Shown here: piece after piece, positions 13,255 through 64,000 of the stretch
Layout: each line of letters opens with the position of its first letter
How positions within the stretch are numbered: position 1 is the stretch's first letter
NCBI GenBank assembly: GCA_964016885.1
Contig: OZ024762.1
Location: forward strand, 27,466,001-27,530,000
Direction of reading: 5' to 3'
Length of the DNA: 64,000 nucleotides
Origin: Eledone cirrhosa
Lineage: Eukaryota
Notes under the pieces: generated by a model
Databases searched by the model: none
Seen by the model: the letters and a program-made list of their open reading frames with translations, nothing else
Told to the model about the DNA's origin: nothing
Made by a program: the position numbers and the translations under genes

Positions 13255-15618
13255 CCACCTGATTTTGTTACCCGGAGATTTAGCGACCTTCACGGTGGAA
13301 TCTATAGAGACGACGCCCTTCTAGTTAAGAACCTAAATAACCAGAGCATAGAAAGACTGCGTAAGAATATTAGAAAGACTCTCGGGAAACTAGGCCTTAG
13401 CATAACGTATGAATATAGCACTAAAATAGTTAACTTTCTAGACGCGACGCTTAACCTAAATACGGGACTTATAAGACCTTTTCACAAGATTAATGAAAAC
13501 TTAGCATACATCAACTGTAATTCGAACCACCCACTATCCATAATTAAATCCATTCCACGCAGCATATCCCTTAGGATCTCCCGCCTCTCGTCTAACCGAC
13601 AAATCTTCGAGGAACACGTGGAGTATTACAATACCGCATTAGACAAGGCACGCCACCTAGATAGAGTAGAATATATAGACACAACCCTCCGCAAAGCACA
13701 CACGAACAGGCATAACACAAACTCCGGAAACACACGCACACACGCATTTACGCATAGAACTACAAATTATACTGAAAATAGAAATACAACATCAAAATCA
13801 AACAGGTCACGCAGTAGAAAATATATTTGGTATTACCCCATATTTAACACCTCTATTAGTTCCAACCTACCCTCTACCTTCTTTAGAATAATAAATAAGC
13901 ACTTTCCAGATTCACATAGATACAGCAAAATCCTTAACACTAAATCTATTAGACTATCTTACTCCACGGCACCAAACATAGAGGCACACATTAAGATGCT
14001 TAACGCTAAAAAGATACGTAGCAACACCGGAACACAAATGTATAACAATAACAATACAATTACCATCAAACACAACAGAATATCTAATACACAACCACCC
14101 ACTGATAGGCAACCAAAACGTAACACACTTGTACAGGCATCGCAGCCCACCAATAATACCAAAGTTGCACGTGACAAGAACTGTAATTGTCACCTACCTG
14201 AAACCTGTCCATTTCATAATGAATGTATGCAGTCTAACCTGGTTTACCAATGCACAGTGGAATCAGACAACCAGAAATGGTATTACATTGGAGCGACTGG
14301 GAATACATTTAAAGCCTGTTGGTATACACACCGTTACACAATGAAACATTCCCAGCATCGTTATGTAACTACCCTTGCGAACAAGACCTGGCAACTGAGG
14401 GAAAGTAACTAGCAATACACCCTGAAGTGGAAAAAATTATCGAACGTGCCCCCATATCGGAGTGGTATGAGAAGCTATCGGTTATGTGACTTTGAACTGT
14501 TCCACATTTTGAGTTCGAAGAATAAGTTACTCAACAATAAAATTGAAAGATCAATTTATTGTAACCATAGACTCAAAGAAAAATGTTCGCACTATAAGTG
14601 CAAATCGAACCCTTAACCTCTTACTACCACCTGACAAACTGTATATACTTAGACTTTCTACCCTCTTATTGAATCTAACCCCTTTAATTACCCACAATAA
14701 CCAATACCTATATCCCTCCCTTCTCCTTCATTCCTTTTCTCTTTTTCGTTTTATTCTTTTATTCTCTCCCTTTTTTTTGCTATCTTTTCTTTTCTTTTTT
14801 CTCCCCCCCCCCTTCTTTATTTTTATTTATATATCTATTTATGTCTCTATCTCTCTCCCCACTCCCCCTCTCTCTCTCTCCCTCCCACTATAAACAATTT
14901 AATTCTCTTTAATTCCCTACACTGTAAATTGACATCAAGTCTACGAATCAAAACTGATCGAGGAATCCTTCCACCTTTACCCCTCCCTCCATCTCCGTTT
15001 GTCACTCTTTCTTCTCCCCCTTCTCCTCTCTATATACTACTCCGTTTGTCCCTCTACTTCCTAATTCCTCTCCCCCTTCCTCTCTCTCTATACTAGTAAA
15101 TATAAATTTTAAAAAATGTTTTTTTATATATTAAGAACCTTTTACGAGTAACTTATTCATTATTTTGAAAATTTGGAGGTGAACAACAATTATTATTGTG
15201 TGGCTGCTATTAACCAGTGCATTACTGGTACTTTATTTTATCGACCCCGTAAGGATGAAAGGCAAAGTCAATCCCGCCGAGGTTGACTTTGCCTTTCATC
15301 CTTACGGGGTCGATAAAATAAAGTACCAGTAATGCACTGGGTAATTGCTGGCCTTGTGCCTAAAGTAGAAACAATTATTGTGTGGCTGCTATTTGCAGTA
15401 TGGGAATATAAGGTTGCACTTACCAATGAAACGGTCGTAAATACCTGGATAAAATCCTTTTTTTAATGCTTACCTGTGTTTTCCCTTTTATTCTTTATAC
15501 TCCAAGATTGAACTTGATCCTTACGAACTTGTGCTGTTACCCCTAACCGTACGTTGAAACCGTCCATGAAACTTAACCACGAACTGGATTACAATAAGCA
15601 ATTTTCTACTTCCTTAAC

Positions 15619-19514: not shown

Positions 19515-20034
19515 ATATTTCGTTTCTGAATTTGTTTAGCAAGATTCTTTATTTGAAAATGTGTGTTGAAACCGATATTGTTATACTTTCGGAGGGTCAT
19601 GTTGCCAATAAGAAACACACGCACCAGTTGCTTTCACTTCAATTTATTATAATAAATTTATAAATTTAGGAATTTATAAATTTCCGGTTGGTTGGTTGGT
19701 TCCACAACCAGATGGTTGTTTATATATTGTCAAAGTTCTTTCGTCACACATTCTGTGAGCTCTTCAGTGACTGAACACACACACAGAAACAAGATGGCGT
19801 AGGACAGAACAAAGGAGAGGCACAAAAACAAAGAAAAGTATCCCCAGTCACTGAAGAGGTCACAGAATGTGTGACGAAAGAACTTTGACGATATATGAAC
19901 AACCATCTGGTTGTGGAACCAACCAACCAACCGGAAATTTATAAATTCCTAAATTTATAAATTTATTATAATAAATTGAAGTGAAAGCAACTGGTGCGTG
20001 TGTTTCTTATTGACAACATGACCCTCCCAAAGTA

Positions 20035-20040
<6 letters not shown>
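19515..20040. mobile_element. Fold-back pseudo-LTR module, ~195-bp arms (19579-19773 / 19845-20038), HHR on both strands
   Basis: GTCA-CTGAAGA-G-GTCACA..TGTGAC-GAAA-GAAC-TT-TGAC at 19847-19889 (+), mirrored at 19729-19771 (-). Terminal motif CATGACCCTCCCAAAGTATAAC. Confidence 0.85.
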
Positions 20041-20106
<66 letters not shown>

Positions 20107-20108
<2 letters not shown>

Positions 20109-20891
20109 TATTGAAGTTTCTGTTGAAAATTGAAAAAGTCATAGGAGTGAAGAGTGCTCTATGTAATTACCAGAGCTAAATTTAATGTATAATAAACAAT
20201 ACAATATAATTACCTCATTACCAGAGGTTTCCTGAATAAGATGAATACAAAAACGTCCTCATTCGTTCGTCGGATAAGGCAATTTAAAACATAGTGAAAT
20301 ATTTGAAAAATCTCCTCAAGAAAGGCAAAAGTTTAACGGGCAAAAAAAATATATAAATAAAAGTAATGCAAGACATATATAAAATAAAATAAGGAAATAT
20401 AGTTAGGGTATGTGTATAAATGTGTGTATATTCACTCACAAATGTACATATGTGTGTATGTACAAATGCTTGTGTATAGTGAAAATGTATGCGTAAGTAG
20501 TTATATGAGGGCAAGCATATTAGTGTATGTGTGATCACAAATACGTATATAATATAAGTTGAAAAAGAAATTGTAAGATAATATTGTTAACATACATCCA
20601 GATTCGGGTATTAAATATATACACATACAAGTATGAAAGTATAAACACACATACAAGTATGAAAGTATAAACACACACATACGCGCGATCACATATATGC
20701 GAATGATACACAGGGAAGGGAGTGTATTAGTCAACGGAGTGTCAGTCTGAGGCTCGATACATGTATAAAAATGAAACAATATATGAGATTAAAAAATGTT
20801 TTTAAATCAAAGAGAAAGTAAGAGGGAGGGGTTATCAATTATACATTAACACTAGAAAAAAGAAAACAAACATAGGTTCGTACGTACACAT

Positions 20892-20922
<31 letters not shown>

Positions 20923-21500
20923 AATACGTACAGACAAAAGCACATACATGCGTACATACATACAGTGGCGCGCATGATACACACGAAGCACACATATATA
21001 TATATATATATCGGCACACGTACGTACGCGACTATATATATATATATACATATACACACATACATACACATACATATATATATACATATACACATACATT
21101 CACCCATACACACACATACGTATATATAAGTATGTAAAAAACATAGATCTAAAAACACACATACACACACATTTATACACACACGCACACATACGGAGGC
21201 GTTCGTATACATATACAGAACGCATACACACACATGCACACTTGCAAGTGTGATTTCATGTGTGGGCAACTGGTGAAAATTTCTGTTTTTGCATTTAGGC
21301 ATGTTTTTGGTGATTTAAGGTTCTGTAAAATCCAATATTTTTCACTTATGCAGAGTGTGCATCTTCTTGTTCCTCCTGCATATTCGTTAGATTGGTTCAA
21401 AATTGACCAATCCAATTTATATTGGATACCTTGGTCTTTCAAATCCCATATTCTGCTAGCCAGAACTGTTGTGAATATTTTTTTCTGGATGTCGGAAAGA
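20107..21500 (-). mobile_element. 5'-truncated PLE: GIY-YIG C-terminus (21240-21480), microsatellite-rich 3'UTR and pseudo-LTR with HHR (20213-20279)
   Basis: IWDLKDQGIQYKLDWSIL..Y..GTRRCTLCISEKYWIL..LN..EIFTSCPH. HHR CCTTAT-CCGACGA-..-GAAA-CCTCTGG-TA-ATGAGG. Confidence 0.8.
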
Positions 21501-22114: not shown

Positions 22115-25100
22115 TCTCTTGGTAGCTGGACGCACACAAATTTGCTGGTAAATTTCTGTCAATTTATTTACAAAAAACAAAAATTCTTGTTTAAAAAAAC
22201 AAATTGTCTTGTAGACTGAACTGTCAGCTGGCTGGCAATCTCATTTTTCGCCGCCACAGGGGTGAAAATTTAATTTGAAATTAATTAAAAAACTGTTAAA
22301 CATTTTTAATATTTTGCCATCAGCAATGGCAAGCGTACAAAGAACGCTAACGAACGTTGAAGAAGGAAAGGGAAAAGAAGAAATAGACTTTAACGTTGCT
22401 AAGAACTTTGCCTATATCGATGTAGTTGACAAGAAACGTTTGTGTAACGAAGGTGAAGTAGACAACACAAACAAAATTAAACCACACAATATGTAACAGA
22501 CACCAAAATCAACAGAAAAAATAATTGACACAACTACAAACGGAAAACCCGACAACCACCACAACAACAACAACACCAAAAAAATAACTTTTACAAAAAC
22601 AGTCACAAATAATAATAACGTTACCTCTAACTCCGCATGTATTGGCGTCACCATGGAAACCAATATGGATAACAAAAATAAAAACAAGATCGAACCACAC
22701 AGTACAACAGACGGAAAAAACAACAGAAAATAAAACCATTGACACAACTACGAACGGAAAAACCGACAACCACAACAACAACAATAACAACAACACCAAA
22801 AAAACTTTTGCGCAAACAGTCATCAAGACACAAGATTTCAAGGATCTCCATATCTCCAATGCGAAACAGATGCTCTCCGAAGCAAAGGAGTTTATCACTT
22901 TCGGTGAAAACGGGGGATTTCAGATAAACTCACCCCCAGAAATTCGTCTGGAAACATTTCGAAGGACAATTATTTTCAGAACTGTTTCAAATGAAACAAA
23001 ACGACCAGCATTCCTCAGTCAAGGGGAAATTGAGGCAACCTTGAAGGAGATATTACCAGACATTGACTTTATGCAGAGGGCCAAAGAGTACGGGAGTATT
23101 TCGGTACTCCTCAAAAGCGAGGCCCTTGCACAAAGATACTCAGTGACGCCAATACTGTTACAAAAATACACCTTTTTTCCTACATACCTGGGAAAAAGGA
23201 CACAAAAAATTAGAGTTTCAAACATACCACCAAATATTAATATTTGGTGGATATTGGCAGGATTTTTAGAGGAGAGAAAAGACACTATTCTCTCCATCAA
23301 AAGGTCAACCAAACACACCTGTTCTGGTACAAATTTGGAGATTCTGGTGCAATGAGCCCGGAAAGAATCTCCAACATACCAGAAAAAGTGCTGGTGGACA
23401 ACAACAGCCACATAAATATTTCGGTGGAGGGCGAAAACCACATTGCTTTCGTTGCAATAGCACCTCACACACAAAGGCCTCCTGCCCTTTACAAACACGC
23501 TCAACCAAAACAATACAAAAGAAAACACTGTTACCAACACAAAAACAACCAATACCACAACAACAACGACTCACGAAACAAGCAAACACACCAAAACAAA
23601 CAGCCACTCAACCAACAACAACAGAAAAAACACAGACAACACCCTGAAGAACACAGCCCCACCAATCCCACTCCATCAAACACTACGACAAACACACACA
23701 CCGAAACCACCACCTCACAACATACACCTACCCCACACTCCTGACGATGATTATTCACTAACAGATGAGGTTGCTTCTCCTTTAAGTGAAGAAGGAGAGC
23801 CTCGGAAATCTAAAAAACAAAAAAAGAGACACCAAAAAACCCCGAAACTCCAATCACCAACACCAACGCACAACCACAGACACAAACAACAACACAAACA
23901 ACACCCAGTCAAGCATCCCCCTACCGGTAAAACCAACACCAACACCACCCAAAACACAAGAACCCATCATAAAAAGAAACTCCCGGACGAACAAAAAACT
24001 AAAACAACACAACAAAAACACAAACAACAATACGCATACATCAACACAAACAACAAGAGTTTGATGGAGGTCATCTCCCAAAACCCCAAGGTGGAGACGG
24101 AGGGCAAAACTTTCATCAAAGCAGAATCGTCTCCACACCTTAAACTTATAAGGGTTTCTATGGAGACCTATAGTGACCTGAAAAATAAATTTTCGCAGGA
24201 CCTGGGCAACCCCTCCAGAAACCCATCAACCGCGTCCTGTTATAATGCTTCCCCACCCCACCCAACACCCCATCCAGCACCCAAATGGAGATTGAACAGC
24301 TCGTTCTCCAGGAAACGAAAAGGTAAGTGCACCTTTTCATCCTTTTTCTCCAACTCTTCTTCACCAACATGGCTAGTTTACGAGTTGGAAGCCTGAATGT
24401 GCGTGGCCTAGGGATGCCCTGGAAACAGGGCCAACTTTTAAACGACCTGAGGTCACACGGTATGGATGTGATAGCCATCAGCGAGTCCAGGATCCACAAC
24501 AGGCAGCCACTAATCCCCATCTTCGACGACTTTGAGATCTACGCATCTCTCTGTCAGCCAGGAGGTGGTGAGGGAGTGGCTGTCATGTTTCGGAAGAACC
24601 TAGACGTTGAAGTACAGCAAGTACAATTGAACTCGGAGGGTAGACTGGTAGTCCTAGACGTGAACAGTATTGGAGGTGGAACCTTCAGACTGGTGGCCGT
24701 TTATGCCCCGACCGACCAATCGCAATCACGGCCAGCGTTCTTTAAGCGTCTAGAGTCTTTTCTGGGAACGTCTCGCTCCTTACTTTTAGTGGGGGACTGG
24801 AATGGTATCCTAGATGCACGATGGAACTATGTGGGAGCATGTCCCAGTAGAGGGTGTGCAACAGCCTCAAAACTTTAATCGGCCAATTCCAACTGGCCGA
24901 TAGGTATCGACTGCACCACAGTGGACTTGGGAAAACCGCAGCGGAACATCTAGATCGTATTTAGATAGGTTTTTCATTAGAGAAAAGGATAAGGAGATGT
25001 TAAGCTGTCCACGAATGCACATGGTTGCCTATTCAGATCACAAATTAGTCGTCTGCTTAGTCAACCGTGATAGAACACATAGGCAGGGACCCGGATACTG

Positions 25101-26160
25101 GAAGCTGAACGTGTCGTTGCCGTCACATAAAGCTTACAGTGAACGGATAAGTAGACTAGACAAGCAACAGTTAACGGGAGCCATCGTCAACAATAGATGG
25201 TGGTACTCTCTCAAGAAAGCAATTAGAGTAGAATCGATAGGGTTTAGCAGAAAGTTGGCCTTGGAGAAAAACAGAATAGAAAGAGAACTAGTAGCCAAGG
25301 AGACACTTAGATGTGGCAACGCGGCTAGAGTGTTAGCGTCGAGAACGGAACTGGACCAGTTCTTCGATAAGAAACACGAAGGCTGCGTGGTCAGAAGCAA
25401 AACACGTGCTCTAGGAAACGAAGGAGCGAAAGCTGTCAGCTGGACCCGAGTGGCGGAGGCAAAAAGTGGCAACAAGTCGACGATTCGGTCTTTGAAAGAT
25501 CAAAACGGATCCGTGCTGCTTGACCCCAAGCAAATGTGCGTGGCCTTCAACAGCACTTTGCGCGACTGTTTGAGCAGAACGACGGTGAGCCGAACGGGGC
25601 AATGGACTTTAGTTCATACCTCGACGGCCTGCCGCGTCTCTCGAACACGGACACCGATTTCTGCGAAAGACCGATCACGGACTCTGGGATACGGGACGCT
25701 CTGGGCCGCTGCTGGAAACGCAAGTCACCCGGTCTAGATGGTTTACCCTATGCGTTTTAGATAGGCATGCCGGACTTGTTCTCTGGCGTCCTCGAAGCCG
25801 TCTATTGCAATTGGCAGCAGAACGGGAAAATTCCCAGTTCTGCAGGCAAGGGCGAAGTAACGCTGATCAGGAAAGACGAGAACAAGGGGTACGAAATTAA
25901 CAACTTCAGGCCCATAACTCTGCTCAACACAGAGTTAAAGATTTTGGCCAAGGTGCTAGCGGCGAGGTTGGCGCTTGTCGTCGAGAACCTGGTAGGGAAA
26001 GTGCAACCGTGTGCAATCCCGACCAGGTCCATACACGACAACCTCCACCTCATGCGATACATCATAGAGAGGGAGGGTAGTAACCCGCTTCGGTGGGGCT
26101 CTGATCAATTTGGATCAGTCTAAGGCATTCGATAGGGTCGACCATCGATACCTGGAAGCG
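22115..26160 (+). mobile_element. Tx1/L1-clade non-LTR retrotransposon, 5'-intact, 3'-truncated, pseudogenised (ORF1 with CCHC knuckle; ORF2 AP endonuclease + RT N-half)
   Basis: ORF1 from ~22326 with CFRCNSTSHTKASC at 23444-23485. ORF2 ATG 24369: GSLNVRGL, ISESR, VYAP, GDWN, YLDR, SDH, GPGYWKLN, KSPGLDG, FRPITLLN, LDQSKAFDRVDH. Many frameshifts and stops. Confidence 0.92.
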
Positions 26161-28110: not shown

Positions 28111-29710
28111 ATAATAATAAATTTGAAGACTAAAATCCAAAGAGGGCTCGATAAGGATAAATATATATCAAATATATAAGAACCGTAGAGCAGAATCGCT
28201 GCTTTCACCATTAACGGGATCTTCTGAAATTAACAAAGTCAATCTGTAAACGCAGAACTGGATATTTCAAAAAACGTTGCACACATATTTATATATGCGT
28301 GGTTTTGTATACCTATGGTAAGGTGTTGCGTATGCTTGTGTATGTACGTATTTCTTTGCGTGTATGTATTTATTTATTTCTATTACTTCTGTATTGTATT
28401 TATTTACTTTGTTCTTAACTCTGTAGCGGAGATTCATTTGGTCTCCTAGTTAGAATTTTAGTCTACGACTTTTGCTATACCATTTACGTGGTTTTGTCTT
28501 TGCGTGCTATTGTTCTCCACCTGGGAGATCCTAGCTAGGGCTAGATCGTATAACGGAAATAAAAGACCATGTGACCTCTGCGCCGCTGAGGCCCTGGAAA
28601 TACTCTACGCCACAGACCACATCTTAAACAAAAAATCTGAGACAATTTCGGCTTGTAAACATAAATTGCACAAAACTTTCCTGTATTACAGCCCCACGTT
28701 ATACCCTAACGGATAGTACGATCTATACGTGGATATTTTACGTCTTGATGTGGGAGCTAAGTATATGTTTTGTTTATTCCTTTACTTATTTGCATAGGTA
28801 AGTATATACTACCCGTATGTTTTGTGAAGGTACGTATACCTTCTCGTACGTATATTTGATTGTTTTGGCGTATAATTTTATATATTCTGGTACATAGGGT
28901 TTGGCTATGTGAATACGGGAGTTTTGCGTCTGTGTGAGTATGCAGGTTCGTACGTATGGTGGGTGTGTGTATATGTGTACTTCTTGTTTTAGTTGACTTA
29001 CGTCTCCGAACATTCGTGTATTTATTTATAGGTATGTGTGTGCGCTTGTTATATACGTATTTATTTATCTATATACGTTTATATAATTATTTATTTATTT
29101 GTACCCAAGCATACACACATACACATATTTATATGTGCGTGGTTTTGTATACCTATGGTAAGGTTTTGCGTATGCTTGTGTATGTACGTATTTGTTTGCG
29201 TGTATGTATTTATTTATTTCTATTACTTCTGTATTGTATTTATTTACTTTGTTCTTAACTCTGCGGAGATTCGTTTGGTCTCCTAGTTAGAATTTTAGTC
29301 TACGACTTCTGCTATACCATTTACGTGGTTTTGTCTTTGCGTGCTATTCTTCTCCACGCTCCAGATATGACGTATTATCTTCGTTTTTTCGTTCATTGCC
29401 AGAGAACGTCTCTATGCACCACCTAAGAGAACATTAGTCTACGACCACTTTTATACCATAAACGTGGTTCTATCCTTGCACGTAATTGTTTTTCACCGCT
29501 CCTATTAATGACGTATTATTCGTTTTTTCCTGTTCTTAGCCAGCGAACGTTACCACGAACCAAAGTATCGTCTTCCTGTCTTCCTCCGGTTGCAACGTTT
29601 TTTGAAATATCCAGTTCTGCGTTTACAGATTGACTTTGTTAGTTTCAGAAGATCCCGTTAAGGGTGAAAGCAGCGATTCTTTGCTTAAACTTTAATCTGT
29701 TATTTTAATA
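28110..29710 (+). mobile_element. Rearranged PLE remnant: inverted pLTR pieces (28110-28280), 240-bp direct duplication (28281-28517 = 29121-29357), GIY-YIG C-terminus (28520-28716), 3'UTR and HHR (29641-29691)
   Basis: WEILARARSYNGNKRPCDLCAAEALEIL..ILNKKSETISACKH. AGTTT-CAGAAGA-TCCCGTTAAGGGT-GAAA-GCA..TGC-TT-AAACT. Family pieces recur at 44195-44290 and 44545-44650. Confidence 0.8.
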
Positions 29711-29983
29711 AATATATATATATATTTATTAAAATATATATATATATATATAGGAAAATAGTCAGGACCCCGAGGGCTGAGCACCGGTCGATTCGACAGC
29801 TAGATCCGAACTAAGCCACTAATACTCTAACTATTGAGTTCTCTGGTGCGTTTTGGTCCACCTGGTATCTACCACACCCTCTTTATTTTATATATATATA
29901 TATATATATAAGTTTATCCCGGGTTAAGTCGGGGGTAACCACAGTAAGTATGGTACTCAATACATGGCAGAGTATAAATATTT

Positions 29984-30097
29984 AATATAGAAATGGCTTC
30001 TACAGGACTAGAACTGTTTCATTCGGGAGAAATCATCAGGAAGCCCTGATGATTTCTCCAGAATAAAACAGTAATAGTCCTGCAGAAGCCATTTCTG

Positions 30098-30101
<4 letters not shown>
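29984..30101. ncRNA. 118-bp palindrome of two back-to-back HHRs (intact on - strand 29995-30045; mutated on +)
   Basis: Minus strand: GGCTTC-CTGATGA-TTTC-TCCC-GAAT-GAAA-CAG-TTCTAGTC-CTG-TA-GAAGCC. Confidence 0.85.
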
Positions 30102-30196
<95 letters not shown>

Positions 30197-33775: not shown

Positions 33776-33846
33776 GAAAACTGGCTAATAATTAATATTT
33801 TTTATTAATGTGATGTGCAGTTAGGAATTTATTGTATATATATATA

Positions 33847-33944
<98 letters not shown>

Positions 33945-33950
33945 TGTATG

Positions 33951-34129
<179 letters not shown>

Positions 34130-34174
34130 AATATATATATATATATATGTATAATATATATATATATATAATAT

Positions 34175-34506
34175 ATTATTATTATGTAATAAACAACATA
34201 AGGCAATTATTCCATTTACCAGTGGTTTCTTAAAAGCAAAAGGTTTTGCTTTCAATCCTCAGAATGAAAAAATCCTGGTTTGTTTATTGAATTTGGATTT
34301 TAAAATCCAAATTCAATAAACAAACCAGGATTTTTTCATTTTTTCATTCTGAGGATTGAAAGCAAAACCTTTTGCTTTTAAGAAACCACTGGTAAATGGA
34401 ATAATTGCCTTATGTTGTTTATTACATAATAATAATAATTAAGCTCTGTTGCCTACATAGAGCACTCTTTTTTTCCTGGACTTTTCCGATGGAATTACTT
34501 CATTCA
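34175..34506. mobile_element. Near-perfect ~260-bp palindrome (34175-34438) of a PLE pseudo-LTR with canonical HHR on both strands
   Basis: Centre ATTTTAAAAT near 34300. CATT-CTGAGGA-TTGAAAGCAAAA-CC-TTTTGCTTTTAA-GAAA-CCACTGG-TA-AATG at 34345-34398 (+), mirrored at 34214-34266 (-). Confidence 0.9.
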
Positions 34507-34564
34507 CACATATATATAATATATATATATATATATGTATAATATATATATATATATATGTATA

Positions 34565-35465
<901 letters not shown>

Positions 35466-36028: not shown

Positions 36029-37080
36029 TAAAATAAAGTACCAGTAATGTACTGAGGTAAATTTAATCGACTTTTCCCTCCCCAAAAACCTACTAGCCTT
36101 GTGCCTATATAAAAAACCATTATTATTGGGATTGGCAATATTGGTAGAGGGTCGGACGCCATGCTTTACAGCATAGTTACGTCCCTTTACGGTCTGAGTT
36201 CAAATCCCGCCAAGGTAAACTTTGCCTTTCATCCTTACGGGGTCGATAAAATAAAGTACCAGTAACGTACTGATATAATTGCTGGCCTTATGCCAAAAGT
36301 AGAAACAATTATTATTATCTTTATTATTCTCATTGTTGCTGTTGCTGTTTCTATTTGATCTATTAATTTCTTCTCTTCAAGACTAATAACTTATTGATTT
36401 TCTTGGTAGAGATTTCTAGTAGAATCTGTGCTTGGCATCTCTCCTTTATTGTAATAGGTTCGTTATACAATAAAACTACAGCAAATATCACCATTTTCTT
36501 CCTAAGATTTCCTGGTTTTTTAACCTTTATGTTGTATTAGATTATATTATATTTCATTATATCATATTATATTATATTACGATTTGAGTTCAAATCCCGC
36601 CGAGGTTGACTTTGCCTTTCATCCTTACGGGGTTGATAAAATAAAGTACCAGTAATGTGCTGGGTAATTGCTGGCCTTGTGCCTAAAGTAGAAACAATTA
36701 TATTATATTATAGTGGATTGGCAGTATCGGTAGAGGGTCGTATGTCATGCTTTGACGCATAGAGTTACGGCCCTTTCCATTCTGAGTTCAAATCCCACCG
36801 AGGTCAACTTTGCCTTTCATCCTTACGGGGTCGATAAAATAAAGTACCAGTAATGGACTGGTTAATTGCTGGCCTTGTGCCAAAAGTAGAAACAATTATA
36901 TTACATTATATTCTATTATTTTATATTATATGTATATATATATATGTCTGTATATATATATATATATACATATATAAATATGTGTGTGTATCTATGAGTG
37001 TATATATATATATATATAACGGCGATGAATTAGTTTTGCGAGGTTTTTTATATGAAATCGTGTGTCGAAACAAATATTGT

Positions 37081-37340
37081 TATACTTGGGGAGGGTCATA
37101 TTTGTGTAATATTGCCAGAATTAATAACAGAACACACTCACTGTTTGGTTGGTTTTCGCTTCTCTGTCCTTTAAATCGGTTAATTTAATTTATTCGGTCC
37201 TCAATATTACCATTCACTGACCAACCGTCAAAAATACAGATACAATATAGACACAAACACATATATATAGTCTAACAAACAGTGAGTGTGTTCTGTTATT
37301 AATTCTGGCAATATTATTACACAAATATGACCCTCCCAAG

Positions 37341-37343
<3 letters not shown>
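37081..37343. repeat. Fold-back module (arms 37081-37147 / 37275-37343) sharing the ATGACCCTCCCAAGTATA terminus with the 19515-20040 family
   Basis: Visible inverted repeat; (TA)n flanks. Confidence 0.75.
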
Positions 37344-37417
<74 letters not shown>

Positions 37418-37419
<2 letters not shown>

Positions 37420-37593
37420 CGAAGGAAATGTGGTAAGGAACCAGGTGGACCATAACGCACCAAAGTACTCAATACTTGAGATAGTAGAGTGGATAATAGG
37501 AACCAGTAAGACCCCGACAGCTGAGCTCAAGCCGTTTCGACGGCTAATTCTGGTCGAAACGGCTTGAGCTCAGCTGTCGGGGTCTTACTGGTT

Positions 37594-37598
<5 letters not shown>
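37418..37598. mobile_element. pLTR module ending in a perfect ~100-bp hairpin (37496-37598) holding the 3' half of an HHR; diverged relative at 29752-29888
   Basis: GTC-GAAA-CGGCT-TGAGCTC-AGCTG-TC-GGGGTC on both arms. CCAGGTGGACCA.AACGCACCA shared with 29845-29870. Confidence 0.7.
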
Positions 37599-44667: not shown

Positions 44668-44907
44668 ATTGTTATACTTTGGGAGCGTCCTGTTGCCAAT
44701 AAAAACATACGCACCTGTGGTTTTCACTTCAATTTATTATAAATTTCCCAAAGTATAACAATATCTGTTTCAACATACGTACGTTTTCAGATAACAAATC
44801 TCGCAAATCAAACTAAAAAATAAATTATATATATATATAATTCATTTTTTAGTTTGATTTGCGAGATTTCTTATCTGAAAACGTATGTTGAAACAGATAT
44901 TGTTATA
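44668..44907. repeat. Terminal fragments of the 19515-20040 family forming a palindrome (44754-44907) centred on a (TA)n
   Basis: TATAACAATATCTGTTTCAACATACG ... CGTATGTTGAAACAGATATTGTTATA. Confidence 0.75.
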
Positions 44908-47078: not shown

Positions 47079-50000
47079 CTTACTTGTACTTGTGTCGACA
47101 TTCACCCTGGACGGGTTGACTCGGCTTCTTCCCTTGTCCTGACAGCATCCCGAACCATGGCAGCCCACCCACGACGGTCCAGGGCTAGGTCACTGGAGAT
47201 AGCGAGCCAGTCACGGTTCTAACGTCGCAGGCCGACCACCTGCGGACCTGAGAGTTCGGAGAGGTCCTCCTTGATCGTCGTTGCCCAGGTATTCAGCTGC
47301 CCGCGAACGCGCTTGCGCCAGTTAGGGAGTGGAGGTGGGAGGAGAACATCGCGGATCAGCTCACCCTCAGGGCGCCGGGATGCGTGACCAAACCATCTCA
47401 AGCGCCGTTGCAGAAGCACTGAAGGAAGGGGTCGAAGATTCAGGCGAAGACGAAAACTGGTGGTAGGTACCCGATCAACGCGTGGGCAGCGAAGAATGCG
47501 GTGGAGACAGTCATTGTCGAAGATCTCCAGCCCTCGTTGATCGATTACCCTCATAGGCCATGTTTCACAGCCATAGAAGAGGATAGTGCGAACGACGGCC
47601 TGGTAGATTCGCCCCTTGGTCGCCGAGGTGATCTCTCTTCTGTCCCACAGACACCGCTGGAGGCGTCCAAAAGCGGATCTGGCAGCACCTATGCGACGCT
47701 TGTCCTCAGCTGCGCCCTGTCCTGTTGGAACCACTGTTGAGCCCAGGTAAACGAAGGACTCCACATCCTCCAGGTCCCTCGAGAGATATTGGCTGCCAGG
47801 CATCAGGCGAGACCAGTGACGTCATGACTTTCGACTTGCGGCATTGTTTCGTAGACCAACAGCGGTGGCTGCAGTGTGAACCCCTTCGAGAGCACCTTGT
47901 ACATCTGTCCCGTTAGCGCCCCTCAGCACGATGTCATCCGCGTAGGCCAGATCCGTCACCACGACCCCTCTCCCGACTTCCAGGCGCGGGTAATCCCGGA
48001 GCGCTGTGTTGAGAGTGTAGTCAATGGCGTAGTTAAAGAGAGTTGGTGATAGCGCACACCCCTGCCGAACACCGGTCCCAACATCGAACGACTCTGACTC
48101 CCCACCATAGACCCTCACCCGAGCCCGAGTCGACCGGTAGTAGCCTTGTATGAGACGAAGCAGCTTCACTGGGATGCCGTCCGCCTGCATTATACGCCAT
48201 AGGGCTTCCCGATCTACCGAGTCGAAGGCAGCTGCAAAGTCAATGAAACAGAGGACGGCAGGCTGTTGATGTGCCCACCGTTGTTCCAGGACACGCCGGA
48301 GATTGAAGATTTGATCAAGCCACCCCCCCCCCCCCCACCCCCCACCCCCCGGACGAAGCCGCCCTGAGAAGGACGGGCACGGACATTACGGATGGCCTGG
48401 AACCTCTTCAGTAGAAGAATTGCGAAGTTTTGGCAGCAACGTCAATTAAACTGACACTCCTGTAGTCGGAACAGTTTCCTGCCGCCTTTTTAAAGAAGGG
48501 TAGGAGAGTTTGCTCGCTCCAATCACTAGGGAACCGCTCCGTCACCCACACCGAGGAGAAGACTCGATGGGGCCAAGCTGCGAAGACATCAGGCTCGGCC
48601 TTGTAGACCTGGAACGCGATCTTCGCCCGGCGCCTTGTTGTTCCGGGGATGTGTCAGGACACTACCTACCTCCTCGACCGTTGGAGGGGCAGTGCTACAC
48701 CCGTATTCTTCTCCGGAAGGCTGCCCGTAGGTTGGCGTGGGTGGTGGCGGGTGGTTGAGCAGCTTGGAGAAATGGTCCCGCCATCGGACTAGCCGGTCAT
48801 TAAGATTGGTAATGACCGCCCCGTTCCGATCACGGATCGTCGCGCTGATACCCGTACTGCTTCGGCTGGCCCGCTTCACCAGCTGGTAGAGCTTGCGCGT
48901 GTCACCACAGGCTGCTGCCCGCTCCGTCTGACCGCAAATTCGCGCCCGTGTGCATTCCGATCGGTCCGTAATAGCCCGAGATGTGCGACGTCGGAGATCT
49001 CGAAGATTGGGTGCACCCTCGAGTCGGATCACTCTCGCCCTCTTCGCGAGTTCAAGAGTGCCGCCGGAGATCCAGTCCCGATGGCGTCATCGGGTCGACC
49101 CGAGATGCTCTCTGGCCACCTCAACCGTCGCCGCCCTGAGCACGTTCCACTCCTGCTCCGGTTGCTATTCCACTTCGTTACTCAACATTTGAACTCGGTT
49201 TCGCAGCTCTAGCCGGAAAGCATTTCCAGTATCGAGCTTGAGTCGCGAGGTGTCGATCCTTTTCTGGCGGTTGGGAGGAGGTTTCGCCCGCAACCGCAGA
49301 CGAAGGGCTGCTCGAACAAGAGTATGGTCCATCACTGAGCTGACCCACCGAGATCTGACCAGGACGTTGTCAATCTGATTGGCTGTTCTTCTGTCATTGG
49401 ATCGCTACGTGACGAGGTGACGCCGAGGATGTTGGAACCGGGTGTTAGTGACTATAAGACGATTGGCATCCGTGAAGGACACGAGCCGTTCACCATTGTC
49501 AGAGCTTACGCCTAGGGTGAAGCGTCCTAGAATATGCCGTGTTGTATCATCAGCCGGCCCCGTCCGCGCATTCCAGTCCCCAGCGACAATGAGAACATCA
49601 CTGGAGGGGACGCCATCCACGGTTGTTTGGAGATCGGCATAGAACTGCGTCTTGTCCGCCTCGTCCGCATTCAGTGTGGGAGCGTAGACGGCAATTACGC
49701 TAACGTTGGAGATTTGACCCTTCAATCGAACCAGCGCGAGTCGGTGTGACATCAGCTGCCACGCCAGCAGAGCCGCTTACGTGTCGGGGCCGAGCACTAC
49801 AGCGACCCCGTGAAGGCCACTGTTGTCAGTCACGCCACTATGGTACAAATGGTAGGAGATGTCCTCGCCAGGAACTTTGATCGGAAGATAACCAACATCG
49901 GGAAGTCGAACTTCTGAAAGGCAAGCGACACTAACGCAGTACCTGTGCAGAGCCTTCATTGTAAGTGCCTGGACACCGTCATCACGAAGTGTTCGGACGT

Positions 50001-51347: not shown

Positions 51348-52327
51348 TATATATAAGTATGTATACGTACATATATATATATGTATACAGACGTACAGTA
51401 GCATGTATATATATACATACATGCACACATATATATATGTACGTATGGGTTTACCGAACATTTATTATAATGTTCGGTTTGTTTGTAAACAAACAGCCCG
51501 TATTACGCCGTACAGTGTTCGGCAACCATCGTTGCCCTTTTGTTCAACACTGACAAAAGAACGATGAACTAGTTTCAAGTTTATAGGTATCGTCAACATC
51601 ATATACCTTCCTGTCAGATGATTGAACGTTTGAAAGTATATACTTTCCTTATACATATTTACGGCAGATTAGCCTAAATTGCATATCGAGTAAGTTAGAC
51701 GGCCGGGCGTACCGAAAACGATAAATGGAAAAGAATGAAACGAAATTTCATTTCTCAATCTTGGTACGGCTGATACTTAAATATAAGTATGTATACGTAC
51801 ATACATATATGTATACAGACATACAGTAGTATGTATATATATACATACATGCACACTTATATATGTACGTATGAAATTTCGTTTCATTCTTTTCCATTTA
51901 TCGTTTTCGGTACACCCGGCTGACTAACTCACTCGATATGCAAATTAGTCTGCTCAGCCGTTAATATGCATAAGGAAAGTATATTCTTTCAAACGTTCAA
52001 TCATCTGACAGGAAGGTATACGATGCTGACGATAGCTAATAAATTTGAAACTAGTTAATCATTCCTTTGTCAGTGTTGAACAAAAGGGCAACGATGGTTG
52101 CCGAACTCTGTACGGCGTAATTCGGGCTGTTTGTTTACAAACAAACCTAACATTATAATAAATGTTCGGTAAACCCATACGTACATACATATATATATGT
52201 GCATGTATGTATATATATATACATACTACTGTACGTCTGTACACATATATGTATGTACGTATACATACTTATATTTAAGTAACAGCCGTACTAAGAGTGA
52301 GAAATGAAATTCGTTTCATTCTTTTCG

Positions 52328-55419: not shown

Positions 55420-55427
<8 letters not shown>

Positions 55428-55897
55428 GTTAGTCCAAAGAATCATTTGATAAAATATATACAGTATTTCTTCTCCCAATCACCATAATTAACCACACAAA
55501 AAATCAATTAAACGAGGCTATAAGTTTAAAATATATATGAAGAAACAATAGATAAATAAATGATAGCTATTTTATCCGCTATCAACAGCCACAGAAGATT
55601 TACCTAGTATTTCTAATAGCCCGTAGAAATTGACTAGACATATAGCTAACCATACACAATTAAGTACAAAATCAAAGTTAGAAGAAAAAATGTACATAAA
55701 TATACCATAATGTTGGTATGTTTATGTACATGATAGCTATTTTTAGCTATCATTTATTTATCTATTGTTTCTTCATAGGTACATTTTAAACTTATAGCCT
55801 CGTTTAATTGATTTTTTATGTGTTTGATTATTCTGATTGGGAGGAGAAATACTGTATATATATTATCTAATGATTCTATGGACTTACTTTCTTATAT
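55420..55897. repeat. Older fold-back module (arms 55420-55569 / 55744-55897) in (TA)n
   Basis: ~150-bp imperfect inverted repeat; only GAAA-TACTGTA-TA remains of a possible HHR. Confidence 0.75.
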
Positions 55898-56078: not shown

Positions 56079-56480
56079 ATATTAACTAAATGGAAACTAT
56101 ATTTATAAAACCATATTTATTCTATTATATATATTTCAAGGGTACCAAAACTTTGGTACGCTTTCATCAGATAAAATACAAAGTTTGTTTTATAAATTTT
56201 GACATAACCAAGAAAAAGATACCTTACCGGTCCAAGGAAAACTTGAACCGGTAAGGTATCTTTTTCTTGGTTATGTCAAAATTTATAAAACAAACTTTGT
56301 ATTTTATCTGATGAAAGCGTACCAAAGTTTTGGTACCCTTGAAATATATATAATAGAATAAATATGGTTTTATAAATATAGTTTCCATTTATTTAATATC
56401 ATTGTATATTATACTCCAGAAAAATATGTCGAGAAGTCTGAATCAGTTATAAACATTTATATTTGTTGAATTACCAACAA
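56070..56480. mobile_element. Near-perfect ~340-bp hairpin (56070-56231 / 56247-56408) of a pseudo-LTR with canonical HHR on both strands
   Basis: TATTTTAT-CTGATGA-AAGCGTACCAAA-GT-TTTGGTACCCTT-GAAA-TATATA-TA-ATAGAATA at 56300-56360 (+), mirrored at ~56118-56178 (-). (TA)n flanks. Confidence 0.92.
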
Positions 56481-56497: not shown

Positions 56498-56565
<68 letters not shown>

Positions 56566-56658
56566 GTAATTCCGTCGGAAAGGTCCAGGAAAAAAGAGTG
56601 CTCTATATAGGTTACAGAGCTTAATAGTTATGTAATAAACAACATAAGATAATTATTT

Positions 56659-56713
56659 AATTTACCAGTGGTTTCCTGAAAGCAAACAAAATTTGCTTTC
56701 AGTCATCAGAATG
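56659..56713 (-). ncRNA. Type I HHR (family of 34345-34398) in module 56562-56830
   Basis: CATT-CTGATGA-CTGAAAGCAAA-TTTTG-TTTGCTTTCAG-GAAA-CCACTGG-TA-AATT. Confidence 0.8.
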
Positions 56714-56838
56714 AAAAAATCCTGGTGTTTTTATTGACAGTGGATTTTAAAAACAAATATATAATCTATATGAAGCTGAGGTTGGAAAAGGAAGAAGGAA
56801 AGGAAACAGAATAAATATAAAAGTAGATAAACACACAT

Positions 56839-57564: not shown

Positions 57565-59620
57565 AGAAGTACAGAAAATGAAGAGTTTCCCGAATCTCTA
57601 CGTCCCTTCCGACAAAACAAAAAACGTCTATGAGTTTAACCAGGATACCTATAGGAAGCTGGCTAATAATGCGATTAGAGCAAATTACAAAAAAGTGGAT
57701 GAAACAGTACTGACTGACACCAACTTAGCCGGAAAAAACATTGTCATTTCCCTTAAACTGGAATAGAGGACTGAACCTTTGAGGGTAAAGGCCCCGCATT
57801 TTACCCTTAAGGACCACAAGGGAAACTTTACGAATATACCATCGGTCCGGCTAATAAACCCACAAAATCCGACATAGGATCTGTCAGCAAGAAGATCCTG
57901 GACAGGATACTACCGACACTGCGTGCAGCTTCACCTCTCCCACTCTGGAACAGAACATCCGAAGCAATCTTATGGTTCCAAGAACTGCCTGACAAACACA
58001 ACACCCGTTTCCTGCAACTTGACACTGAGGATTACTACGCCTCCATTTCTGAGTCCCTGCTGAAGGATGCAATTGTTTTCGCAAGAAACCTAACCACCAT
58101 AACCGACGCTGAGCAGGATGTGATCCTCCATGCACGAAGACCTTTTTGTACCATAACGGGTCCTACTGGATCAACAAAAAATCGGAGACTCCCTTCGATG
58201 TCAGCATGGGTGCAAGTGACTCGGCTGAAATTAGTGATTTGGTGGGCCTGTTTATCCTTAACCGGATAAAAACCCTCTTCACAGGCCTTACAGGCCGATT
58301 ATACCGAAATGACGGCCTCTTTGCCCTGCATAAAATTAACCTCAGGACTACCGATGGGTTTCGGAAAAACCTTAACGCTTTCTTCAATAACCTAGGCCTC
58401 AGAATAACTATAGATTCGAGTTTAACTAAAGCCAACTTCTTAGATGTAACTCTCGATTTAGAAACATCCCTTTATTATCCGTACCACAAACCTAACGAAT
58501 CCCTTAGATATATAGACGTTAACTCGAATCACCCCCAAAACATCACAGATAATTTAGTTAAAAGTGTCTCCGTTAGGATCTCTGGCCTCTCCGCCAATGA
58601 GGATATATTTAGGGCCCGGCCCCCTATTACAACGAAGCCCTAGCTCGTAGCGGTTTTAAAGATAAGATCTCTTATCTCAGAATAGCCCCACGCCCATCCA
58701 GGAGGAATAGGAAGAGGAAAATTAGCTGGTACAACCCCCCTTTCAACCGCGAGGTATCTACACCTATAGCAAAGAATGTCTTTACTCTATTGCACAAAGA
58801 CTTCCCCACCCAACATAGGTACTACACCATCTTTAATAAGAATACAATCAGACTCTCTTACTCCACTATACCAAATTTAGCTAGGAAGTTAGCCAATATT
58901 AATATTACTAAGTTAAATAAGTCTACTACCTCCTAAACCCATCCCGGTACTGAGGTCATGTGCAACTGCCACGATAAGGTTGCATGCCCTTTCAGCAATA
59001 AATCCCTTACAAAGGATATTGTATACAAATGTGATGTCATCTCAGGCCCTGATGAAGAGAGAAAGAGGTATATCGGGATGACCTCCAACAACTTTAAGAC
59101 CCGTTGGTACGCACACACCCATTCTTTTCGACGCCCGGACAAGTCCAACCAAACAACACTCGCCGCCCATGTTTGGGACCTAAAAAGGAACTCCATCCCC
59201 TTTACGCTCAAATGGAAACTACTCCAGAGAGCGCGGTCTTACACAGGAGGCCATAATTGTTGTGACCTTTGTATTTCCGAGAGTTACGAAATAGTATTCG
59301 CCAAAGGACCCTTACTCAATAGATTCTCAGAACACTGCCCGAATTGCCTGCACAAAAACTATGCAACTTACAAGTCATATAGACCAGTTCTTCCCCTAAA
59401 CGATGATCCCATAAGACAACGGAATCGACATTAAACATTAAACATTAAACACACTCCCCCGCGCCCCCTCCCATCCCAACCCTACCTTCGTTTTGTTACC
59501 TTTCACACTTATAAATTATACTTTACTGTTCTCTACTTGTATTTTATGTTACTTAATTTTAATTTATGTTATTTGATGGTTTTTTCATATCTTGATTGTT
59601 TTCTTAAATTTACCCCTATG
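57565..59620 (+). mobile_element. Penelope-like retroelement (CxCx5C-linker type), near-complete RT + GIY-YIG, pseudogenised
   Basis: YVPSDKTKNVY, TLKDHK, RLINPTKSDIG, LDTEDYY, FDVSMGASDSAEISDLVG, LYRNDGL, NFLDV, SNHP, WYNPPF, CNCHDKVACP, VYKC..YIGMT..FKTRW..H, LKWK, CDLC, CLH. Stops and frameshifts. Confidence 0.93.
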
Positions 59621-60409: not shown

Positions 60410-61018
60410 TAGGAGCGAAATATCACGATACATTAACGGAGCCATAGACCCTCGTCATTCCCTGTTAATAATGTGCTCAAAGGAGAGGAAATCCTGAGCT
60501 CTTTAAAATACAATATGTTGAAAAGGTAACACACCAGAGAGAGATACAGTGCGCTATCAATAAAACAGAGAGTCTATAGCTCCGATAATGTATCGTGATA
60601 TTTCGCTCCTTATCTCAGTCTTTCCTCTCTCTCTGTTTGGTTGAGCACACTTCTCTGAGTGGTTTTGAGCTGCCCTTTCTAACAGCTCGGCCCTCAGAGG
60701 CCACTGGTTCACTGCCCTTAAACACGCTGTGACTTCTCTCTCCCACGTGTAGCTGGACGGTCGCTTTAAAAATTCTCTTAGTGTTGTCTGAATGAACCGG
60801 GGTTATTTCATTACTGGCGAAACAGATCTCTTTGGATTTGTACGTGTGTTATATAGTTATAGAGGTATTTATTTACGCTTTAATTTATATTTTTAATTAT
60901 CGTGTGTCTACTCTACCTTTCATAGGTTATAGATTCCATACACTGGTGGTTTTTCCCTGTTTATTGATAGCGCACTGTATCTCTCTCTAGTGTGTTACCC
61001 TTTCAACATATTGGATTT
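60410..61018. repeat. Module with two nested/overlapping inversions (60411-60449 vs 60572-60610; 60512-60569 vs 60957-61013) between microsatellites
   Basis: AGGAGCGAAATATCACGATACATTA / TAATGTATCGTGATATTTCGCTCCT; GATACAGTGCGCTATCAATAAA / TTTATTGATAGCGCACTGTATC. Confidence 0.7.
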
Positions 61019-61499
61019 TATATATATATATATATATATCCCATATATACACATATATATTTCATACATACATACACACATACATATACACACACATATA
61101 TACATACATACACACATGCACATACAGATACATTCATATACACATATATATATATATTCTCCACACATTTTATATACACATACATACATACCATATAAAC
61201 CATATATTCCATATAAACACATTTTATACCTCCTACATATATATATTTTTTTTACATATACATATAAATATATTATACATATATCCACACATGCATATAT
61301 ACACACACATACATATATATATACACATATTTATCTCACACATACGGACGTGCATACATACACACATATATAAATATACACACACACATATACACACATA
61401 CACATAAACATGTACACATATATCTGTATATCTACAGGCACATATATAAAAAAACACATCTATACATACATATATCTATACACACATCCACTCAAGTGT

Positions 61500-63135
61500 T
61501 TAAGTTCATATATACATTTGTGTGGGAAAGTGGAAATTAATGAAATGTTATTGTACCTCTGAGGGTTTTTCTTCTCTTCAGCGATCGAATGTTTGAAAGT
61601 ACGGGTGTCATAAACTATTTTTCCTTTTCAATATGAGATTTTTTTAAAGAAAAGAGAGCGGGGAGAATCCCATTGTTTGAAAATGGAATACCACTTTTTT
61701 GTGTTCAGTAGTGGTTTGTATTTTCTAATAAAGAATTCTTCTTTATATTTTCGGAAGTGTTCGTTATCCGACCATATCTTAAAGATGGGGAAAATTGTGA
61801 AATTTCCCTTTCCGCATGTTGCGAAGTGTTCACTGCATGTGGTGTTTCTGACAGAGGGGTCTGTAATTTGTTGTTTATGTACTCGAACTCTGTCATGTAG
61901 GCCCATTCCGGTTTCACCAATGTAGTATTCTTTACATTGTGGGCAGGTTGCACAGTAAATCAAGTTTTTTGTTTTGCAATTCATGTTTGCATTAACTGTG
62001 AAAGACTGGTTGTTTTTAAAGGAGATTTGTCGCAAGTTCCGCATCGAGGGTGCCCGCATTTCTTAACTTGCATTGCTTCATTATTAGACGTAAATTTTGC
62101 CTTGGTAAGCAGTTTCTTTAGGTTGGGTGCTTGGTGTCTACTATATATAATTTGTGCGTCTTTTATGAGTGCATTCATTTTGGGGGACTGCTGGAGAATC
62201 GGGAGATATTGTTTGGCGGCTTTTACAATGTTGAAGGTCCTTGGATTGTGAGTGATGACAAAAGGGATAACTGTTTTTTCCATTCTATTTTGTTGCTTTG
62301 TTTTTCTCAGTGTTGTCAATGGGATGTTCTGGGCTTTGAAGATGGCTGTGTTGATGACGTTCATCGGATATTCTTGTCCCTTAAGGAACTTTTTTAATTC
62401 ATATAATCTTTTTTCCTGTAGTGTGGGGTGTGTCACTATGGTGCAGATGCGCCTTGCCATGTTAAAAGGAATGTTCCTTTTGGTATGTGATAGGTGTACT
62501 GAACGGAAATTCAAGTATTGGTGTGTGTCTGTTGGTTTGTAAAATAAGTCCGTTTTGATATTTTCCCCTTCTTTAATGATAAGGATATCCAGAAACGGTA
62601 GTTCCTTTTTATTACATTCCATGGTGAAGTTTATTTCTTCGTGAAGATTGTTTATGATGGAATGGAATCTTTGAAGGTCTTCTTGGCTTCTATTCCAGAA
62701 GATGAAGAAGTCGTCTAGGTAGCGTTTCCAGTTGTGATTAATGTAGGTGGCGAAGTCACAACTGAATGTTTCCTGCAGTTTGGAATGTAATTTTGCCTCC
62801 AGGTGGCCCATAATGAGTGTTGCATGTGTTGGGGCCACTTTGGTATCCATGGCCGTTCCTTTTATTTGTAAATCTAGTTCGTTATCAAAAAGGAAGTGGT
62901 TGTTCTCCAGTACTAGTTTGAGTCCTTCCAAAATAAATTGTTTGGGGAATCTCTCTGAAATGTAGTTTGGATGTTTTGTAATCCAGAAGTCAACAGCTTC
63001 AACTCCTAAGTCGTGTGGGATGTTAGTATATAAGCTTGTTACGTCAAAGCTGGCTAAGATTGTTTCTTGGTGTACTTTCTGGGGGATATAGTTCAGGAAT
63101 TGCATATCATCTCTGATGAAGCTTGGCACTTTTTT
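61500..63135 (-). mobile_element. 5'-truncated Neptune-type Penelope-like element (RT + Cys-rich linker + GIY-YIG), one frameshift near 62020
   Basis: SFDVTSLYTNIP, GTAMDTKVAP, WKRYLDDFF, PFLD, KPTD..YL, KCGHPRCGTC, MNCKTKNLIYCATCPQCKEYYIGETG..RVRVH..HF. Confidence 0.93.
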
Positions 63136-64000
63136 GTACCTATTAATAGACTCAACTCTAGCTTGTAGATGTGATACATAATTGATTTATATTTGAGACG
63201 GGGGATAACTATTGCGTGATGGCCAGACTAGTGCATTTATATGAGAGATTGTATCCCCGGACCATACCGAAGATTTACTGGAGATGCAAGCATGCAATGA
63301 CCCGGAGCCTACCGGGTGGCATATATAATAGTGGGACCATACCAGGTCATACTGTTATATTACATTTGCATGGAGCAGTGACCTGAGAGTCTGACTCCTC
63401 TTATAGAACGTTCAGATATAACACCCCTTAATTAATGGATGGTAATCATCCTAATATATACACCCTTGTACTTCTTAATAGACAACTCTCTAACCTATAA
63501 ATGGGTAACATACTCTAGATATTAGTTATAACTTCACATGATAGGCACGTATTTGAATCACCATTAATGTAGTTTAGCATAGTAATGTAACTAAGATAAC
63601 TATCTAGTTACCTCCCCTTACGCATTAATTCCCCTTAGTCATTCAGGCACTTCCGGAATCTGGACAGCATGATATATTAATTAAGAACCGACTGGATACG
63701 GTTTATAGCTTGACTATATGCTGAACCACCGCGAATTATACAATAGACGCGTGTTCTCTATATATATATTGCGTCTCATGGACTATGTGAGTGGTGGCGT
63801 GAGCAGGGACAATGGTACGGCCTTGCCTACGATACAATAAGGTTTATAGTATGTTGATGGTTTTTGATATTTTGGTGTTTCCCCGCATCCGAGACTGTAT
63901 ATCATACAGATGTATGAGAATTAATGACTTAATAATTCAGCCTACATAATAAGATCGATTGCCAGCTTCAACTGCCTGACCCTGCAAACATCATTCTGAC

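Follow-up and report, generated by a model that had tools for sequence, protein, structure and literature searches.

In their account of the Hydra clade of Penelope-like elements (PLEs), Craig et al. (2021, PMC8557442) attribute to Penelope-13_HM a 5′-truncated inverted copy and a hammerhead on both strands, and the legend of Fig. 2 of that paper mentions the inverted copy together with a tail at one end, as in the element considered here (family A); the way in which PLEs make their tandem and inverted repeats is named there as unresolved. In the Penelope elements of Adineta vaga (Arkhipova et al. 2013, PMC3846280), pseudo-LTRs likewise lie head to head, with palindromes at the inverted junctions, an optional tail on one arm and AT-rich targets. 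The PLE hammerheads reported by Cervera and de la Pena (2014, PMC4209133) are, as here, type I motifs located in the pseudo-LTRs, with a long helix II, a palindromic helix III and predicted dimers, and they likewise include families with compensatory changes and pairs of hammerheads on opposite strands, 100-700 bp apart. With regard to insertion, a PLE protein is reported to nick and extend both strands and to begin synthesis at two internal positions, which delimit the tail (PMC11167929), and in LINE-1 insertions an extra G has been read as the signature of a capped 5′ end (PMC11702581).

The locus analyzed here lies in a stretch of 64,000 nucleotides of the Eledone cirrhosa genome (assembly GCA_964016885.1, contig OZ024762.1, positions 27,466,001 to 27,530,000 of the forward strand), referred to as the window, and its palindrome is the head-to-head inverted pseudo-LTR junction of 5′-truncated Hydra-clade PLE ends in a (TA)n array (Table 1). 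The axis falls between 34301 and 34302 (TTTT/AAAA); the arms match over 128 bp with 0 substitutions, the sole difference between them being an extra 8-bp unit in the right arm, and the folding z-score against shuffled sequences is -28. Both the absence of substitutions and the close match of the arms to the youngest family A subfamily indicate that the insertion is very young, and the (TA)n repeat leaves no unambiguous target-site duplication to be read at this locus. The spacerless palindrome of ~260 bp with hammerheads reported in the preliminary description was borne out, with 128-bp arms and one type I motif per strand, and the predicted GUA site located here by descriptor search coincides with the position, 34394, which had been given for it. 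The downstream AGAGCACTC segment is also present, but only beyond the right arm and outside the palindrome, as AGAGCACTCTT on one arm.

Table 1. Features of the palindromic locus and of its two relatives, in coordinates of the window
Feature	Position	Strand	Details
(TA)n target array, left of the palindrome	33836..34173	.	
Tail-less inverted arm, 5′-truncated pseudo-LTR end of PLE family A	34174..34301	-	terminus ...CATAATAATAATA abuts (TA)n
Type I hammerhead motif, antisense copy (descriptor search)	34210..34269	-	core 34262, predicted GUA site 34217 (N17)
Self-complementary TTTTAAAA junction, common to both arms	34298..34305	.	+3 to +10 of the inferred element RNA
Tailed arm, family A pseudo-LTR end	34302..34437	+	8-bp slippage duplication 34330-34345
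Type I hammerhead motif (descriptor search)	34342..34401	+	CUGAGGA core 34349, predicted GUA site 34394 (N17)
PLE tail, 66-72 nt, on one arm only	34438..34509	+	GCTCTG/AGAGC stem-loop 34443-34463 and second predicted hairpin
(TA)n target array, right of the palindrome	34510..34670	.	
Older subfamily A2 copy, same pseudo-LTR end and tail	56562..56795	-	hammerhead core 56709, stem I damaged
5′-truncated copy of sister family B	20107..21472	-	endonuclease C-terminus 21472-21194, ~1 kb 3′ region, hammerhead (core CCGACGA 20273), tail

Both motifs of the locus display the features of a type I hammerhead (CUGANGA, GAAA, NUH and three stems), with a stem I of 7 bp, a stem II of 12 bp and ACCACTGGT as stem III, which on the plus strand is the palindromic ACCACUGGU; in the Rfam search of the window, the best 150 of 432 matches did not include a hammerhead family and comprised only microsatellite or hairpin matches below gathering scores. 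The paired hammerheads of the preliminary description do not amount to a working dimer in cis, since one motif is sense and the other antisense and both are buried in a single predicted hairpin. This hairpin, predicted for the read-through RNA, has a folding energy of -207 kcal/mol, and the probability of stem II within it is ~1e-18 vs 0.98 in a single arm, according to the folding prediction. With such a long hairpin predicted for the read-through RNA, the two hammerheads of the locus cannot pair in cis; they would be passengers of the insertion, with both motifs unfolded.

The arm is a high-copy repeat in this 3.0-Gb genome, where a 32-nt pattern taken from it is matched exactly 1,161 times and a DNA search with the arm yielded 1,504 candidates, 40 of which were scored; in two of the 30 top arm loci the arm runs on into an ORF, intact in locus L032 (3908-6040), where 711 aa are encoded from the first ATG with the arm directly upstream. 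For this protein, 951 homologues at E ≤ 1e-20 were found among 8,000 scored. Read by motif, the single ORF carries an RT (FDIVDFYPS and YRDD) followed by a GIY-YIG domain (VVY...YVG), whose R, H, E and N residues are conserved in 38-40 of 40 aligned proteins. It also contains RWK at 37-39, DKT at 114-116, a CxCX5C linker (C556-x-C558-x5-C564) and an endonuclease core lacking CCHH (no Cys in 575-597), with C659xxC662 and C690xH692 flanking E and N; every Hydra-clade motif listed in PMC8557442 is present. Pfam searches with the 711-aa ORF and the 40 aligned homologues found no relevant family, and a search of the sequences of solved structures with the ORF gave nothing at useful E-values. With the clade assigned by motifs, family A appears to be a new family of Hydra-clade EN+ Penelope-like elements, and no description of it was found in full-text searches of the literature.

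Partial tandems and inverted 5′-truncated copies, as expected of pseudo-LTRs, were identified in L031, L032, L034, L187 and others, and the family A hammerhead lies within the pseudo-LTR, as in EN+ PLEs. The order of the unit is hammerhead b, tail, 5′ leader, ORF, 3′ region, hammerhead a, a microsatellite-rich stretch of 1.1-1.5 kb and hammerhead b again. Hammerhead a, the second paralogue, has a GUG cleavage triplet in all 10 distinct loci recognised through their upstream context, GUG being a poorly cleaving triplet in hammerheads. At L032:6310-6460 and the beginning of the next segment, the GUG paralogue is followed by a GTAAG donor-like site, and hammerhead b is preceded by a pyrimidine tract with AG at its end; the segment between hammerheads a and b may be an intron.

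The exact 30-nt centre of the palindrome is present at 36 loci on many contigs, and the neighbours found within 10 kb for the first 100 listed arm matches comprise 18 head-to-head, 3 tandem and 0 tail-to-tail arrangements. Exactly one arm is tailed, with a tail of 66-72 nt, in 57 of 58 close palindromes, a set of head-to-head pairs that includes the studied locus and one duplicated locus, the palindrome loci being the top or first matches of the searches and not a random sample. Flanks of (TA)n occur on each side in 52 of 54 loci, in agreement with the target preference of the Hydra clade, and a target-site duplication is clear in one locus, L106 (16 bp), and is unreadable in (TA)n at most loci. 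Within a locus, 2.7 substitutions separate the two arms, vs 4.3 between loci (56 loci; 0 of 10,000 permutations), and they agree at subfamily sites in 8/8 and 9/9 loci. Since the arms of the same locus are the closest to each other, and no site separates tailed from tail-less arms across the 56 loci, the palindromes form anew at each insertion. One stem II loop site, at which the arms were discordant in 14 of 16 loci, was considered as a proof of two templates and dropped, the loop being hypervariable in all copies.

A single G, located two bases 5′ of the TTTTAAAA word, is where the 5′ ends of the copies cluster. It is preceded by T, the templated base, in 511 cases, by G in 76, by A in 8 and by C in 7, and 28 of the 30 inspected GG copies terminate there, which leads to ~70 ends vs 3 at the control position. 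On the cDNA side, an extra C was observed in 33 of 52 ends from 26 palindromes joined at that G, in five loci as CTAG, and the GG in several junctions is also readable as microhomology with the other arm. An untemplated central CTAG is found in the palindromes L025, L142, L177 and L180, and the extra CTAG of L177 lies at another truncation point, so that the RT may simply have a preference for adding C. The additional G of the sense 5′ ends is consistent with a capped sense RNA as the template.

The palindrome is best interpreted, with a probability of roughly 0.7, as the head-to-head junction of two 5′-truncated pseudo-LTR ends of an autonomous Hydra-clade PLE in (TA)n, likely generated by two-ended priming and annealing of the cDNAs through TTTTAAAA. 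An internal promoter would start a capped RNA at the fixed G, which precedes the hammerhead core by 45 nt and the AUG by 317 nt; start site, cap, transcription and cleavage are all things that we infer from DNA fossils. The protein would then nick both (TA)n strands, and cDNA would begin at two internal sites on either side of the tail hairpins, one target end priming beyond these hairpins and the other before them, both on capped sense RNA. Both cDNAs would run off the 5′ end of the RNA, and their 3′ ends would anneal over 8 bp, with flaps trimmed and gaps filled.

Self-priming, in which one cDNA (or antisense RNA, as for rotifer Penelopes) folds back and is copied into the second arm, has been proposed on an antisense template for palindromes at inverted PLE junctions (PMC3846280), and it would agree with the subfamily alleles and the four private variants shared by the arms of a locus, as well as with the symmetric cases, where the tail-less arm is contained within the tailed arm. 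The studied symmetric locus, taken alone, fits fold-back, its tail-less arm being a subset of the tailed one, and the central CTAG inserts, in 5 of 26 loci, could be mini-hairpin loops. Nevertheless, the unequal inversions point in another direction. They were mapped in 20 distinct loci, of which two are direct tandems, one has tails on both arms, one is unclear and 16 are interpretable, and in 10 of these 16 the tail-less arm contains sequence that the tailed arm lacks, and for this reason they cannot be obtained by fold-back from either arm; the remaining 6 are compatible with fold-back and two-ended priming alike, and later deletions shortening the tailed arm could be an alternative cause of unequal arms. 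Furthermore, L143 joins a tail-only arm to a tail-less arm, the junction of L032 fuses two different hammerhead paralogues through stem II, and the extra G agrees with a capped sense RNA as template. No stable fold-back is predicted for a cDNA with TTTTAAAA at its end (0.0 kcal/mol, with forced folds at +1.7 to +3.7), and the two-strand duplex of TTTTAAAA ends reaches -5.6 to -6.6 kcal/mol; all four palindromes of the TTTTATAA variant join at other junctions, and most of the direct joins show microhomology of 1-6 nt. The junctions favour priming at both target ends on a sense RNA whose 5′ end is fixed and probably capped, and they speak against fold-back as the general route; self-priming is considered unlikely.

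Chimeric long reads can yield perfect palindromes, and in one locus (L158) two tail-less arms have flanks that are mirrored over ~100 bp, a palindromic extension which may be a secondary fold-back duplication or an assembly artefact. At the studied locus, however, the flanks differ, the tail is on one arm only and an 8-bp indel distinguishes the arms, this junction is present at 36 loci spread over many contigs, and the old copies have diverged between arms, all of which makes a fold-back artefact of assembly or sequencing extremely improbable. The exact centre common to these 36 loci and the AT-rich targets would also be expected from a non-autonomous palindromic unit (MITE-like or retrozyme), amplified whole with both hammerheads in use and mobilised by the family of the copy at 20213, and PLE pseudo-LTRs have been presented in a preprint as the origin of animal retrozymes (10.64898/2026.07.22.740005). 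Such a unit is largely refuted and very unlikely, since the ends are asymmetric and differ by locus, in contrast to the fixed symmetric termini of MITEs and fold-back elements, the arms group by locus and not by side, the hammerheads are on opposite strands instead of in tandem as in non-LTR retrozymes, and family A has its own ORF, whereas retrozymes have none. Retention by the host of a hairpin RNA locus derived from the insertion, as an endo-siRNA or ADAR substrate, would be in line with the near-perfect 128-bp duplex predicted on read-through and with the heavy editing of palindromic repeats in some animals (PMC5625713), but arms free of substitutions and near the youngest subfamily belong to a very young insertion, and this possibility is given very little weight.

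Two relatives of the locus are located in the window. The stem II strings which the preliminary description quoted at 56659-56713 and 20213-20279, and the common GAAA-CC(A/T)CTGG-TA, were all found, and the GCTCTG/AGAGC stem-loop of the locus tail is also present in both relatives. In the 56659 copy, stem I is broken (CATT/AATT, 3 bp), and its closing C-G pair is shared by only 1 of 27 other rows of the subfamily, 21 of which have C.A and 5 T-A; the core of the 20213 copy is CCGACGA and not CUGANGA. In a translated search, residues 622-711 of the family A ORF match 21472-21194 (-) of the window with 54% identity, and the claim that the 20213 module lies downstream of a PLE endonuclease remnant is correct, the remnant being upstream and co-oriented. 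The same adjacency had been put forward as a check on this module, and the endonuclease end was encountered upstream and in the same orientation in at least 11 of 29 other loci of the family, a lower bound from flanks of 1.5 kb; the endonuclease piece is inverted in 2 of the 29 other family B loci. The role of autonomous partner of the palindrome family assigned to the 20213 family was not sustained, as family A has its own intact ORF and the 20213 remnant derives from a sister that is 54% identical. The core variants of the family B loci L037-L065 (33 rows) are CCGACGA in 14, CTGACGA in 11 and CCGATGA in 8, and the sequences suggest a family B source element with C at core position 4, decaying by CpG mutation. 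A third lineage (L250, L264 and L093) has a longer and different stem II together with the same downstream segment and tail hairpin.

Covariation was evaluated with the stems anchored on the core and with majority pairs per family (233 rows, duplicate loci and coreless rows dropped). Between the palindrome and the 20213 lineage, 12 of the 15 pairs in register differ, and all 12 still pair, 8 by double changes (p ~1.5e-4 in a strand shuffle of the 3′ letters); between the palindrome and the 56659 subfamily, 2 pairs differ and 0 are double changes. The covariation previously described across three relatives consequently holds between two lineages, but the relatives represent two independent lineages and not three, and the selection on RNA pairing deduced from it is supported for the palindrome and 20213 lineages. 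It does not extend to an alignment of genome-wide copies, where departures within families are mostly decay: 59 break the pair, 33 keep pairing one-sidedly and 8 keep it by double change, 7 of the 8 most likely originating from one mis-binned sister-family row. The comparison between lineages is good evidence, drawn from two of them, of selection on structure; the genomic copies decay, and it is on the active lineages that selection acts.

In the active element, the hammerhead is under selection and is predicted to dimerise between molecules, by means of its palindromic stem III. In folding predictions, two sense copies co-fold via ACCACUGGU with -32.4 kcal/mol vs -12.2 per monomer, and the hammerhead fold reaches a probability of only ~2% as a monomer, the dimer being favoured. 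Among the insertion fossils, the 5′ ends at the predicted hammerhead cleavage site number 7 vs 3 at one control position, a difference that is not significant (p = 0.17), in a count covering all 19 T/C rows and 27 of ~81 G rows, with A-preceded ends invisible to the pattern. Both arms of L288 start at the predicted cleavage site, and arms starting at this site also occur in L255, L282, L286, L289 and L290. A more speculative view, which is regarded as distinctly unlikely, is that the PLE hammerhead acts mainly as a dimerisation signal rather than as a cutter: two capped, uncleaved RNAs would associate via the palindromic stem III, one cDNA would be primed by a protein dimer on each side of the target cut, and the cDNAs would meet head to head. 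If true, it would explain the overlapping arms, the one-sided tail, the uncleaved templates and the persistence of a GUG paralogue with intact stems.

Other features of the window involve related structures. A second head-to-head palindrome, at 56136-56342, adjoins the A2 copy and derives from a hammerhead family unrelated to it (with cores at 56170- and 56308+, ATATATAT as stem III and a 17-nt spacer). The two arms of an inverted pair at 19575-20043 lie 71 bp apart, and the right one carries a hammerhead-like CTGAAGA...GAAAGAACTT that is damaged in the left one. Ten further short-range inverted repeats (51443-52180, 34670-35288, 15206-15348, 55424-55891, 44754-44907, 28192-29680, 29973-30112, 37074-37351, 37496-37598 and 60412-61020) mostly adjoin (TA)n, with hammerhead-like motifs at 52026+ and 30039-, and they are probably the result of the same process in other families. 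Additional type I hammerhead motifs with a palindromic stem III (ATATATAT, ATATGTAT) are located at 6274+, 15854+ and 17591+, and disrupted ORF remnants belonging to further Hydra-like PLE families, with 29-49% identity to the protein of family A, at 57566-59353 (+), 13267-14601 (+) and 28522-28662 (+). A long tandem array of (GTT)n/GCTAGT occupies 1-4300. By eye, we take 22588-25734 (+) to be LINE-like ORFs with an endonuclease-type stretch, 47222-49086 (-) to be RTE-like RT fragments and 61984-63186 (-) to be another PLE-type RT fragment.

Inverted junctions and opposite-strand hammerheads are published features of PLEs, and the junction evidence is the new part; full-text searches identified no article whose title or abstract brings twin priming or cDNA annealing to bear on the junctions of PLEs. 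The hundreds of readable junctions of family A, a young family, constitute a dataset on the formation of PLE tandem and inverted repeats; they lead to predictions on the exact position of the start, on two RT start sites and on an annealing hot spot, for which an intact ORF is available. In addition, insertions of this kind would scatter preformed long dsRNA hairpins over the genome.

Compared with the elements in PMC8557442, family A carries in each unit a pair of hammerhead paralogues separated by ~1.1-1.5 kb, of which the first has GUG, and its tail measures 66-72 nt instead of the 30-40 given there for EN+ PLEs; by eye, its hammerhead matches none of those in file S2 of that paper, including Hydra-1_oBim. 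With respect to the hammerheads in PMC4209133, stem III of family A has 3 bp and a 3-nt loop (8/9 bp as a dimer), and sister family B has mostly C at core position 4. For the rotifer palindromes, self-priming, possibly on an antisense template, was proposed from few copies (PMC3846280), whereas the dozens of junctions available here favour priming from both ends on sense RNA. The in vitro behaviour of PAc, a Poseidon element (Frangieh et al. 2024, PMC11167929), corresponds to the model presented here, with both strands nicked and extended, two internal RT starts that bound the tail and uncleaved RNA serving as the principal template, although PAc belongs to a different clade and the accessible text of that paper does not show the formation of inverted junctions. 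The LINE-1 twin priming described in PMC11702581 is similar in that oppositely oriented cDNA ends are joined by microhomology or untemplated bases and an extra G is found at full-length 5′ ends; the inverted segments of LINE-1 barely overlap, whereas here the arms copy the same stretch, which would require strand displacement or two RNAs.
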